Source: an uncultured archaeon (GTDB taxonomy: Archaea > Asgardarchaeota > Lokiarchaeia > Sigyniarchaeales > Promethearchaeaceae). From it: a DNA stretch of 32,000 bases. The translations under genes and the position numbers were made by a program. The notes under the pieces were generated by a model. It made no database searches. It worked only from the letters and a program-made list of their open reading frames with translations, and was not told the origin of the DNA. This document shows positions 6,182-17,227 of this stretch, one piece after another. The stretch spans positions 7,527-39,526 of the forward strand of contig CAYRPF010000014.1 in NCBI GenBank assembly GCA_964426185.1, in the 5' to 3' direction. Numbering within the stretch: the first letter of the stretch is position 1; every line of letters begins with the position of its first letter.

Positions 6182-7255
6182 ATGGCCATTACTTCCCCAG
6201 AAATGAATTTTGAAAATTCTGATGGTGAAAATAACCCCCACAACAGAATATCTCTCTATACTATAAAGGATTATCGCGAAATCGGGCAAAAATACGATGT
6301 TTTTTTGGCTAATGCTAGTGTAGCCTACCGAAAAGGTAAATCCATCCTTCATGATATAACTCTCTACTTAAAACCGGGGGAAATTTTAGGACTCATTGGA
6401 GGAAGTGGCGCTGGAAAAAGCACATGTATGCGTGTGATGACTGGGCAAATTAAACCACCGCAGTTGACTCATGGATTTGCTGTAACCGCAGGTTGTCGGG
6501 CGGTTAGAGACAATCTCAAGTTAATTCAAAAAATAGGTTATGTTCCTCAACTAGAATATCTTTCACTTTATGAAGAATTTTCTGCCTTAGATAATTGCTT
6601 ATTTTTCGGAAGAAATTACTGCATTCCAAAGAAGCAGATTCTTAAGCGCGCTCGGGAAATTCTTCAAATTCTTGGATTTGAAAACGAAGAGCTTTTAAAG
6701 AAACCCGTCAAATATCTTTCAGGAGGTGAACGAAAAAGGGTCTCAATTGCGGTCGGCTTGATAAATACCCCTCGGGTCTTGTTTCTCGATGAGCCTACTA
6801 CGGGGCTGGATCCTCACTTAAGAATTGGTGTTTTAAACTTTCTCTTGAAAATCAACAAAGAATTTAATACCACCATGATTATCGTTTCGCATGATTTAGA
6901 AATTGCGGATTACTGCACGAAAGTTGCGATACTAAATTATGGAGAGTTGGCAGGTTTCGGTAAACCAAAGGAATTGATAGAATCTTTACCGAGTAAGGGA
7001 AAAAATCTTACAGTTCATTTCCAGAACTATAATTTCCGCAAAAATTTAAAACAAGTTCAAAATATTTCTGGAGTAGAGTATGTACTAAATACTGGTCGAA
7101 ACCAGATCAAAATTTTTTCAGATTCAATAGAAGAATATCCAAACATAATTAAACAATTGGAGCAAATTGGCTTGGAGATTTCACATTTCAGCTTAGATCA
7201 TTCTGTTTTTTTGGATTATTTTAGAATAAAAGGAAAACACATTACAGGAGTATGA
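6182..7255 (+). CDS. ABC transporter ATP-binding protein (ABC-2/DrrA-like, with C-terminal regulatory extension)
   Basis: Walker A GGSGAGKST, Q-loop YVPQ, signature LSGGE, Walker B LFLDEPTTGLDP, H-loop VSHD. Confidence 0.95.
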   Translation: MAITSPEMNFENSDGENNPHNRISLYTIKDYREIGQKYDVFLANASVAYRKGKSILHDITLYLKPGEILGLIGGSGAGKSTCMRVMTGQIKPPQLTHGFAVTAGCRAVRDNLKLIQKIGYVPQLEYLSLYEEFSALDNCLFFGRNYCIPKKQILKRAREILQILGFENEELLKKPVKYLSGGERKRVSIAVGLINTPRVLFLDEPTTGLDPHLRIGVLNFLLKINKEFNTTMIIVSHDLEIADYCTKVAILNYGELAGFGKPKELIESLPSKGKNLTVHFQNYNFRKNLKQVQNISGVEYVLNTGRNQIKIFSDSIEEYPNIIKQLEQIGLEISHFSLDHSVFLDYFRIKGKHITGV

Positions 7256-7261
7256 TTTTAT

Positions 7262-8449
7262 TTGACTGAAGAGATTTTTTCTGATGCTCGTTCTCGTGCA
7301 TTAAGAATAACTAACATGGTACGAAAAGAAATTAAGAGCTTGCTATCAGATAAAACTGCGATTTTTATCTTGTTTTTCATTCCTTTTTTGCTCATCACGA
7401 TTTTAGGGACTTCGCAACCCAATCTAGAAGCGACAAATACGACTATCTGGATAATTGATTATGATAATTCAGAAACTTCTGAGCAGTTTATTGAAACCAT
7501 GAAATCCTTGAATCTGTCATTGGCAATAGGTCAAAAAATTAGTGTTAGTTTTTTCACTTCTGGTGAACTTGCCCCCATTCAACCTAATTTTGGAGAAAAG
7601 GAGACTTATGGATTGGTTTCCGAGGAACTTGCCCAAAAAACATTAACTACTCAATTTCTAGATGCATATATTATATTACCCGAAGGATTTGAAGATAATA
7701 TCAAAACCAATGGAACAACTCCCATTATTGTTTATTATGATTCTATTGATTTTATGAAAATGCTCGTTTCAGACATGGTTGTTTTAGCTGGTACCAGCGA
7801 AATTCAAATGAAAAATATGTTATTTGAGCGTGATATCATCTATTTTCCCGAAACTCGCCCTGAAAACCTGGATCTCAATATATTAGATATGGGTGCCCCA
7901 AATTTCGTTCCCTTAATGCTTTTCATCACCATGCAACTTATTTCTTCTCAATCCATTGTGGGTGATATTCCTCTACGACGACTTTTGAACACTTCTCTCA
8001 AACGCGGTGAGGTAGTTACTGGAAAATTAATCGCCTATTCCTTCATTGGAATTATCCAAGTTCTCCTTACCATGGCTTTGTTATCCATTTTCAAAGTAAC
8101 TATGCATTGCTTGTGGTTTGATCTTTTCTTGATTTTATTGCTTAATTCGGTGGCGGGTATTTCTATGGGTATTTTCATTTCAGTTGTTACGAAAAGTCGA
8201 TTACAAGCATCTCAATTATTTCTTCTGCTCTTTTTCCTAATGTATATCAATGTATATTATGTTCGCAATATATTTTTCCTTACATTCATACCGATTGAAC
8301 AGACGCGCAAAATTTACGAATTTCTTGCTTACCGTGGAAAGGGATTATCCATAGTTTGGGAACCAATCCTTTTTATGACAATTACTGGGTTGTTCTTTTA
8401 TGTGGCTTCTATAGTTTATATAAAATATATCAAAAAGGAGTTCATCTAA
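7262..8449 (+). CDS. ABC-2 type permease (YhhJ/YbhS-like) with extracytoplasmic domain
   Basis: RKEIKSLLSDK then TM1, IIDYDNSE loop, AYIILPEGF, then 5 TMs including GKLIAY. TTG start. Confidence 0.9.
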   Translation: MTEEIFSDARSRALRITNMVRKEIKSLLSDKTAIFILFFIPFLLITILGTSQPNLEATNTTIWIIDYDNSETSEQFIETMKSLNLSLAIGQKISVSFFTSGELAPIQPNFGEKETYGLVSEELAQKTLTTQFLDAYIILPEGFEDNIKTNGTTPIIVYYDSIDFMKMLVSDMVVLAGTSEIQMKNMLFERDIIYFPETRPENLDLNILDMGAPNFVPLMLFITMQLISSQSIVGDIPLRRLLNTSLKRGEVVTGKLIAYSFIGIIQVLLTMALLSIFKVTMHCLWFDLFLILLLNSVAGISMGIFISVVTKSRLQASQLFLLLFFLMYINVYYVRNIFFLTFIPIEQTRKIYEFLAYRGKGLSIVWEPILFMTITGLFFYVASIVYIKYIKKEFI

Positions 8450-16986: not shown

Positions 16987-16996
16987 AAAACTGAGG

Positions 16997-17227
16997 ATGC
17001 ATATGAGTTCATATCAATATAGAAGGCGGATAATTGTTCGAAAGAGAATATTAGATGCATTTATCTTAACTTTATCATTAGGAAGTATTATTGGGGCTCT
17101 GGGGATGATTTTTTATTGTGCGTATCAACTAAAAATTACCAGTGTAAAGCCTTACATTATGTTCTTCATAATAATTGGATTAGGATTATTTGGCATTCGC
17201 ATTTTTCAAAAAGAAGCGGAAATATAA
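16997..17227 (+). CDS. Small two-TM membrane protein
   Basis: Basic N-terminus (RRRIIVRKR) followed by two hydrophobic helices. 10 nt after the subtilase-like stop. Confidence 0.7.
   Translation: MHMSSYQYRRRIIVRKRILDAFILTLSLGSIIGALGMIFYCAYQLKITSVKPYIMFFIIIGLGLFGIRIFQKEAEI

Follow-up and report, generated by a model that had tools for sequence, protein, structure and literature searches.

Among the described systems, the closest to the locus analysed here are GldA/GldF/GldG of Flavobacterium johnsoniae and the bacterial operons that combine ATP-binding cassette (ABC) transporter genes of the ABC-2 type with an ABC_transp_aux gene, in which, as at this locus, ABC-2 genes are found together with a membrane-anchored GIFT protein displaying a large extracytoplasmic part. 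In the Flavobacterium system, GldF as well as GldG is needed for the membrane localisation of GldA (PMC9127263). In eukaryotes, the structure of the site-1 protease (MBTPS1, also named S1P or SKI-1; PDB 8UW8, 9CSD) displays, in this order, an S8 protease domain, a P-like domain, a GIFT domain and a transmembrane helix (PMC11231238). Finally, archaea possess arCOG01314 (DUF4350), a predicted secretion/remodelling system with a membrane-anchored extracellular DUF4350/GldG-like protein, the archaeal DUF4350 having been linked to GldG (Makarova et al. 2015, PMC5898192). Here, we describe a six-gene cassette with which all of these systems can be compared, found in a stretch of Asgard archaeal DNA of 32,000 nt (hereafter the window) that covers positions 7,527-39,526, forward strand, of contig CAYRPF010000014.1 (GCA_964426185.1).

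The six genes, located on the + strand between positions 6182 and 17227 of the window, encode two ABC ATPases, two ABC-2 permeases, a protein of 1777 aa combining a degenerate subtilase (S8) domain with a GIFT domain, referred to below as the giant protein, and a small protein with two transmembrane helices. They form one conserved unit, which is much older than first proposed. The best explanation of the data, to which we give a probability of roughly 55%, is that they encode one membrane machine of which the giant protein would be the non-catalytic outer subunit, possibly in relation with glycans; taken on its own, the view that the ABC machine counts the giant protein among its stable or functional subunits is likely. 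The features on which this reading relies are the following:

6182-7255, + strand: ABC ATPase 1 (357 aa), DrrA/GldA-like nucleotide-binding domain (NBD) and C-terminal domain.
7262-8449, + strand: ABC-2 permease 1 (395 aa), ABC2_membrane_3.
8452-9672, + strand: ABC-2 permease 2 (406 aa), ABC2_membrane_3, start ATG 8452.
9710-11650, + strand: ATPase 2 (646 aa), with N-terminal extension, NBD, C-terminal domain and tail.
9710-10459, + strand: N-terminal extension of ATPase 2 (residues 1-250), tandem modules resembling the TrmB effector domain.
10460-11650, + strand: NBD and DrrA-type C-terminal domain of ATPase 2 (residues ~250-560), then the tail (Pfam, model and fold match).
11653-16986, + strand: giant protein (1777 aa), putatively dead S8 subtilase plus GIFT, TTG start 9 nt after GGAGG.
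11653-12162, + strand: N-terminus of the giant protein, with a basic n-region, a 19-aa hydrophobic signal/anchor (residues 11-29) and a pro-domain-like region (residues 51-170).
12163-13182, + strand: putatively dead Peptidase_S8 domain (residues ~171-510; Pfam and alignment).
13252-14394, + strand: galactose-mutarotase-like beta-supersandwich (residues 534-914; structure search).
14395-15222, + strand: further beta-sandwich, Ig-like domains (residues 915-1190; model, weak CARDB match at 918-1002).
15223-16284, + strand: GIFT/DUF4350 domain (residues 1191-1544) with two disordered Asn/Ser-rich inserts (Pfam and structure).
16291-16644, + strand: membrane-proximal beta-sandwich (residues 1547-1664; structure search).
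16687-16986, + strand: C-terminal transmembrane helix (residues 1679-1697) and 80-aa cytoplasmic tail (topology and conservation).
16997-17227, + strand: small protein (76 aa), two hydrophobic transmembrane helices and a basic N-terminus.

The open reading frames (ORFs) and the lengths of the orthologues agree with the initial annotation in describing six co-oriented genes separated by only 6, 2, 37, 2 and 10 nt. These gaps hold when permease 2, listed as an ORF from TTG 8356, begins 2 nt behind the stop of permease 1, at ATG 8452; this start is preferred because AAGGAG precedes it and because the orthologues also have 406 aa. A scan for bacterial sigma-70 promoters and intrinsic terminators gave the same counts as shuffled sequence, these bacterial models not being applicable to archaea.

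The nearest public relative of the giant gene, from Candidatus Harpocratesius repetitus FW102, is 64% identical and is listed in the same genus, within the Promethearchaeaceae, and a word-indexed search retrieved no more than 18 relatives of comparable length, with identities of 64-28%, each of them from a Lokiarchaeota/Promethearchaeota metagenome-assembled genome (MAG). Nine loci of the Lokiarchaeia branch were compared, drawn from eight of the relatives, P0014 being present on two near-identical contigs. All nine retain the order ATPase 1, permease 1, permease 2, ATPase 2, giant gene and small two-helix gene, with the following exceptions: the cassette is cut by a contig end in L009, the upstream ATPase 1 is missing in L006, where an ABC ATPase gene lies 7.6 kb downstream on the opposite strand, and the small gene is uncalled in the annotation of L008, although present. 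This 76-aa gene is thus directly 3' of the giant gene at every one of the nine loci. Five of them (L004, L006, L008, L009 and L010) have flanks unrelated to those of the window, so that the cassette moves as a unit. Such a recurrence of one gene order in genomic surroundings that are unrelated goes far beyond chance.

Besides, the cassette extends outside this branch. Across 301 genomes of the phylum searched with a profile of residues 495-1694 of the giant protein (its non-protease part), full-length relatives are found in the window's family and in one genus of the sister family, and shorter ones (open frames of ~1400-1500 aa) in nearly every genome of four other families, f9 (73/76 genomes), f14 (17/19), f21 (6/6) and f10 (5/5). 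Five of eight distant loci have permease, ATPase 2, giant and ATPase 1 genes together, in a divergent arrangement in L011, this distant short cassette containing one permease instead of two and no small two-helix gene; the other three, from f10 and f4, have no ABC gene nearby. The synteny of the S8 plus GIFT gene with ABC-2 genes, on which the initial annotation had staked its proposal beforehand, is thus conserved at all Lokiarchaeia-branch loci and at most of the distant ones. In the same 301 genomes, a profile of the N-terminal module of ATPase 2 (N-module) matches the same lineages as the giant profile, namely the four mentioned above in the same proportions, f1 (5/6), f4, f28 and g7, and has no match in f7 (0/28), f24 (0/21), f16, f22 and f29, where the giant profile gave only few and weak matches of the size of a GIFT domain. 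The two lie on the same contig within ~4 kb in more than 80 genomes; as kin genomes are not independent, no P-value is attached to this co-occurrence. In f10, f4 and the genome G245, the giant and the ABC genes are both present and unlinked, the giant gene and the N-module being both retained in f10 and f4 despite the lack of linkage. Literature searches returned no published description of the cassette. The combination is not special to Lokiarchaeia, being spread over several Asgard families.

In the distant short cassettes, the gene that comes next in the same orientation codes for a very large protein anchored at its N-terminus (L012:15670-18126, L015:14864-20000 and L017:1038-7628, minus strand), made of an FG-GAP/BBS2/BBS7-like beta-propeller with 3, 19 and 35 bacterial TSP3 calcium-binding repeats, respectively. 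The position of this large propeller protein is occupied in L006 by a beta-helix/Big_13 protein of 1350 aa, and no comparable large surface-protein gene follows the window's cassette.

The giant protein displays the sequence of a subtilase that has lost its activity. Its S8 domain is matched by Peptidase_S8 (PF00082) at residues 185-494 with 118.8 bits for a cutoff of 21.8, and is closest by sequence to Tk-SP, the Thermococcus Tk-subtilisin-like protease (E 4e-28), and to ordinary archaeal and bacterial subtilisins. In the alignment with Tk-SP and subtilisin BPN', the catalytic Asp is retained (Asp194); Arg241 takes the place of the His, Asp334 that of the oxyanion Asn and Gly460 that of the nucleophile Ser. 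Among 52 family members, the catalytic Asp is retained in 50, the oxyanion Asn is an Asp in 47, and the nucleophile Ser is present in only four, its position being a Gly in 24 of the 31 long-branch members and an Ala in 15 of the 21 short-branch ones; the catalytic His is found in none of the former and in 18 of the latter. This residue pattern suggests that the loss of the Ser and the Asn-to-Asp change occurred early, and that the His was lost later on the Lokiarchaeia branch. A complete Asp-His-Ser triad is found in a single member, P0054 (1439 aa), whose cluster has a Candidatus Helarchaeota record and whose oxyanion position is still an Asp; this protein may be a weakly active relative or reflect a state preceding inactivation. 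Judged from its residues, the giant protein is almost certainly no active peptidase, and of the names found in public records, "S8 family serine peptidase" and "DUF4350 domain-containing protein", the first would then be wrong. The alignment to solved subtilases and the Pfam matches thereby bear out the dead subtilase with a GIFT-like domain of the initial annotation. Four residues (one helical turn) past the lost His (residues 241-245, window 12373-12387), position 245 is a His in 25 of the 31 long-branch members; of the 21 short-branch members, 20 have Val, Cys, Ile or Ala there, and one has His.

No region of the giant protein is better conserved than this dead domain, which reaches a mean pairwise identity of 59% compared to 34-41% for the other regions of the ectodomain, and which would thus be retained as a binding module rather than decaying. 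The cytoplasmic tail comes second (53%); it ends in ...FGETIGEHY, and its [LI]GE motif is retained in distant orthologues. The pro-domain-like region (residues 51-170) is poorly conserved. A complex prediction between the tail (residues 1698-1777) and ATPase 2 (residues 1-560) gave a score of 0.00, which, the own fold of the partner being uncertain, carries no weight either way as to binding. In addition, the S8 domain has weak NCBIfam matches to the models of the CspC and CspBA germinant-receptor pseudoproteases. The ectodomain contains 34 sequons for 21 +/- 4 expected and is, on this count, probably glycosylated; ORF and domain annotation revealed no AglB/STT3 gene in the window neighbourhood. 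A second S8 protein is encoded in the window's genome (G000:C10:29443-30348), in an open frame of 1265 aa with 35% identity over the S8 domain.

Pfam at E <= 1 gave no match for pieces 1-185, 495-900 and 1540-1777, and only the weak CARDB match elsewhere apart from the S8 and GIFT domains. The folds beyond the S8 domain were read from an AlphaFold model of residues 495-1694 (1200 residues) built with 44 sequences (mean pLDDT 80.6). The beta-supersandwich is best matched by the N-domain of glucodextranase (1ulv_A, Z 19.9, root-mean-square deviation (rmsd) 2.8, 233 aligned residues), with further matches to the N-domains of glucoamylase and of many glycoside phosphorylases and GH15/GH65 members, and to the P1 domain of YidC (Z 14.2). 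The GIFT domain is matched at residues ~1337-1541 by PF14258 (DUF4350; 39.9 bits for a cutoff of 30.4) and PF23355 (IFT52_GIFT; 30.1 for 27.2). Its best structural match is IFT52 (5fms_A, Z 21.8, rmsd 2.9, 209 aligned residues), which is also the only protein of the PDB matched by the sequence of this region (E 6.5e-5). Taken as one unit, the GIFT domain, the membrane-proximal sandwich and the transmembrane helix resemble OST48 (6s7o_G, Z 17.8, 305 aligned residues) and yeast Wbp1 (6c26_B, Z 16.4), whose chains hold Foldseek ranks 1, 2, 4 and 5. In the same line, S1P (8UW8) matches the non-catalytic part with Z 18.0 over 332 residues at 17% identity, and Foldseek aligns the two over ~550 columns (E 2e-9 to 2.5e-8). 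P0050, P0052 and P0069 (3484-3632 aa) are huge proteins in which the GIFT part of the giant profile is matched at about eight separate places each, and are hence GIFT arrays.

The other half of the cassette is a canonical ABC-2 core. Pfam ABC_tran is matched at residues 56-207 of ATPase 1 and 267-410 of ATPase 2, the two being 35% identical over the NBD and C-terminal domain. As previously annotated, both are intact: Walker A, signature, Walker B and H-loop are complete in the window and in every orthologue read, the consensus motifs of ATPase 1 being GGSGAGKST, LSGGERKR, VLFLDEPTTGLD and VSHDL. Residues 249-556 of ATPase 2 match the fold of TM_1403 (Z 25.2), and when similar folds were sought widely for the complete ATPase 2 model, the list was filled with NBDs, including those of Wzm-Wzt, ABCG/ABCA and NosF (7qba_B). 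The C-terminal tail of ATPase 2 is disordered, of low complexity and variable among orthologues. In L004:9500-9932, L010:7100-7372 and L009:3450-3635 it consists of a long Lys-rich repeat (KKS/T-GKKTSKKS...), and in the window it is shorter, acidic and basic. The two permeases are paralogues (25% identity), each with ~165 aa of extramembrane sequence between the first and the second transmembrane helix. The cassette thus contains DrrA-like NBDs with consensus motifs and six-helix ABC-2 permeases, as ABC-2 (type V) transporters do. Two hydrophobic helices are predicted in the downstream 76-aa protein, in agreement with its earlier description.

In the structural model of ATPase 2 (pLDDT 70.6), the N-terminal extension is composed of two modules, at residues 14-96 and 120-245, each predicted to fold as a strand, a helix and a beta-sheet. 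This extension is homologous in all ATPase 2 orthologues compared, from long- and short-form cassettes. In a Pfam scan, seven of 14 orthologous extensions were matched by PF11495, the effector-binding domain of TrmB, a regulator with which archaea sense sugars, with scores over the 22.2-bit cutoff in L017 (37.5 bits), L011 (27.6) and L014 (27.5). The matches are confined to profile positions ~150-233, with two per protein in L011 and L014, and the N-module of the window is clearly homologous to the orthologues so matched. Residues of TrmB that contact the sugar include G320 and E326. The C-terminal subdomain of TrmB combines a strand and a helix with a flattened beta-barrel, and provides six of the seven sugar contacts (PMC4158304). 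Read from these profile matches, the N-module would be a tandem pair of modules resembling the C-terminal subdomain of the TrmB effector domain, for whose ligand the most economical guess is a sugar. Homology with TrmB in the orthologues thus lends support to the ligand-sensing module that had been postulated on ATPase 2. Solved TrmB was not matched in PDB profile searches with the N-module alignment or with the best TrmB-matching orthologue, and a protein-atlas search with the N-module gave no usable feature match (TM <= 0.38).

The window (GC ~34%, AT-rich) also contains, upstream of the cassette, genes for PheRS beta, an Rrp41-like RNase PH and a HEAT protein, and, downstream, a Vps22/36-like gene, Vps25 and Vps4. 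These neighbours point to Asgard archaeal DNA. The last three constitute an ESCRT locus (window 19611-22570) in which the Vps22/36-like EAP30 gene converges on Vps25 (ESCRT-II) and Vps4 (MIT, AAA, Vps4_C), and which is syntenic in Ca. Harpocratesius repetitus (L001). Just upstream of the cassette (window 3717-6099) are encoded the HEAT-repeat protein (274 aa) and proteins of 381 and 102 aa, the latter two without Pfam matches. In L007 too, the cassette is immediately preceded by the 381-aa gene, which lies just upstream in L001 and L003 and is absent from loci further away in relationship; it probably does not belong to the system. Membership was also considered for the HEAT and 102-aa genes and for a Zn-ribbon gene downstream, and was rejected for these as for the 381-aa gene, all being conserved in close relatives only.

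How such a machine could work can be proposed as follows. The core would be a heteromeric ABC-2 transporter (type V, DrrA/GldA-like) with two competent ATPases and two paralogous permeases bearing large outward loops. The giant protein would be fixed in the membrane through its C-terminal helix, perhaps together with its N-terminal signal-anchor; its S8 domain would bind without cutting, and its stalk of GIFT domain and beta-sandwich, of the OST48/GldG kind, would sit on the permease loops, by analogy with GldG. ATP binding and hydrolysis would then drive either the export of a cargo to the giant platform or conformational changes of this platform, as could be the case by comparison with NosDFY or FtsEX-EnvC, which work by mechanotransmission and of which EnvC is a dead enzyme. 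These two options have roughly equal weight, force transmission being slightly more likely since the ectodomain consists of binding-type domains throughout and no glycan-synthesis genes travel with the cassette. Finally, the tandem TrmB-like modules would tune ATPase 2 to a small molecule of the cytoplasm, for which a sugar is plausible. Taken together, the supersandwich, the stalk of the GIFT/OST48 kind, the TrmB-like sensor and the many sequons of the ectodomain would point to a role in the handling of cell-surface glycans or glycoproteins.

Several points weigh against this proposal. The folds of the supersandwich and of the GIFT domain are also known from proteins without sugar binding, such as the P1 domain of YidC and IFT52, and the window's own N-module has no match to PF11495 at E <= 0.5. 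In addition, f10 and f4 show no linkage between the giant and the ABC genes. Lastly, ABC-2 permeases of the ABC2_membrane_3 type usually export small molecules, and a purely mechanical role is an analogy.

In a possible, if doubtful, alternative, the core would be a classical exporter of a hydrophobic or lipid-linked cargo (a glycolipid, a lipid-linked glycan or a precursor of a surface polymer) and the giant protein would only receive or scaffold this cargo outside, without any transmission of force to its ectodomain. The DrrA/NodI/GldA-like NBDs and the ABC2_membrane_3 permeases belong to families dominated by exporters, NBDs of Wzm-Wzt and ABCG/ABCA are among the fold matches, and the giant ectodomain has a carbohydrate flavour. 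However, no glycosyltransferase, flippase or polymerase gene is conserved beside the cassette in the window and the Lokiarchaeia-branch loci, the long extracytoplasmic loops of both permeases suggest docking, and a pure receiver would leave the conserved cytoplasmic tail of the giant protein unexplained.

The same tail, which co-occurs with the extra regulatory module of ATPase 2, could also be accounted for by a pump regulated by a sensor, in which the dead protease cleft would detect a peptide or protein and signal through the transmembrane helix and the tail to ATPase 2, thereby turning a pump for detoxification or export on or off, in a Bce-like manner. Pseudoprotease receptors do exist, and the weak matches to CspC and CspBA are in line with this idea. 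Nevertheless, neither a kinase nor a transcription factor gene is conserved in the neighbourhood, be it in the window or at the Lokiarchaeia-branch loci, and the signal suggested by the TrmB-like module would come from inside and not from outside the cell, so that we regard this alternative as unlikely.

It is decidedly unlikely that the giant protein and the ABC-2 pump have independent functions, the former being an adhesin of the surface or a glycoprotein of the envelope and having no more in common with an unrelated pump than the transcription unit. The lack of linkage in f10, f4 and one f9 genome, and the large beta-propeller/TSP3 surface proteins that adjoin the cassette in some lineages, would fit such a situation, but the genes are adjacent in more than 80 genomes from several families and with differing flanks, their presence and absence are matched across the 301 genomes, and both are retained where they are unlinked. 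As for a cryptic protease, in which the S8 domain would cut with non-canonical residues such as His245 and the transporter would handle the peptide products, the nearly universal Asp194, the frequent His245 of the long branch and the Asp, His and Ser kept by one Helarchaeota-type member are outweighed by the Gly or Ala that prevails at the nucleophile position, by the nearly constant Asp at the oxyanion position and by the lack of any alternative nucleophile conserved in both branches, which makes it extremely improbable.

If the six genes indeed encode a single machine with the giant protein as its outer subunit, they would represent a multi-subunit membrane machine conserved over several Asgard families, and would widen the small set of ABC transporters partnered with a dead enzyme. 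New in this respect are the TrmB-like tandem N-module, the S8 domain as the best-conserved region of the giant protein, and the layout of supersandwich, Ig-like domains, GIFT domain, sandwich and transmembrane helix. The non-catalytic part is the closest structural match found to the eukaryotic IFT52, OST48 and S1P, which renders the origin of these proteins testable. One could go further and consider the cassette as an ancestral Asgard machine for surface glycans or glycoproteins, whose giant protein would preserve the pre-eukaryotic layouts of S1P (S8, GIFT, transmembrane helix) and OST48 (GIFT, sandwich, transmembrane helix). This broader view is rather unlikely; if true, two eukaryotic proteins of the endoplasmic reticulum and Golgi would descend from an ABC-coupled archaeal surface complex with a sugar-sensing ATPase. 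At that stage, the cassette offers a defined target for cultured Promethearchaeia, as the giant gene is present in a MAG labelled Promethearchaeum, and the unlinked giant and ABC genes of f10, f4 and G245 provide a natural experiment on the co-variation of the proteins.

Compared to the known systems, the cassette combines features that are elsewhere found apart. The links of the GIFT domain to GldG, IFT52 and S1P made in the initial annotation are right, as supported by the literature (PMC11231238) and by sequence and structure matches. In common with proteins of the GldG type, the giant protein has terminal membrane anchors, a large outside domain and adjoining ABC-2 ATPase and permease genes; against the GldG models, it scores 22.9 bits with PF09822, below the cutoff of 34.7, and has no TIGR03521 match at E <= 0.001. 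Unlike the Gld system, the Asgard cassette has two distinct ATPases, one with the TrmB-like tandem, and two permeases; its GIFT protein is about three times larger, with the dead subtilase, supersandwich and Ig-like domains before the GIFT domain, and it also has the 80-aa cytoplasmic tail and the small two-helix partner gene. With arCOG01314 the likeness stops at the anchored protein, since that family is found with MoxR-type AAA+ and vWA genes, without ABC-2 genes and without a subtilase domain.

With S1P, the giant protein shares the order of signal, pro-region, S8 domain, beta domain, GIFT domain, transmembrane helix and short tail. However, S1P is an active protease, whereas the Asgard family has lost His and Ser here and the Ser almost everywhere, and the Asgard protein has ~650 extra residues, which form the supersandwich and Ig-like domains. 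S1P is not among the best 60 sequence matches of the S8 domain, and the GIFT region has no S1P match at E <= 10. The earlier qualification of the giant protein as site-1-protease-like is therefore appropriate for its architecture and non-catalytic fold, but not for its sequence, the S8 domain being nearest to subtilisins and the GIFT domain to IFT52. To our knowledge, S1P does not work with an ABC transporter. IFT52 (PDB 5FMS, 5FMR), although the best single-domain match of the GIFT domain by sequence and structure, is a cytoplasmic subunit of intraflagellar transport with neither membrane anchor nor protease domain. OST48/Wbp1 (PDB 6S7O chain G, 6C26 chain B) has in common the GIFT domain, the beta-sandwich, a single transmembrane helix and a short cytosolic tail, but corresponds only to the C-terminal third of the Asgard protein, with a different orientation of the domains (rmsd ~14 A), and the reported Asgard WBP1/OST48 homologues are stand-alone and confined to Heimdallarchaeia (Eme et al. 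2023, PMC10307638).

More distant parallels are provided by CspC/CspA germinant receptors and PCSK9, in which an S8 fold is likewise retained under selection without a working triad, these proteins being however soluble or secreted, devoid of a GIFT domain and not coupled to an ABC transporter. Similarly, NosDFY and FtsEX-EnvC couple an ABC ATPase and a permease to a large outside partner, but the partner proteins are unrelated and the fold of the FtsX permease differs, so that the analogy is one of mechanism only. Set among these systems, the cassette encodes an ABC-2 transporter with a putative GIFT auxiliary protein, to which unusual Asgard-specific and eukaryote-like features are added.

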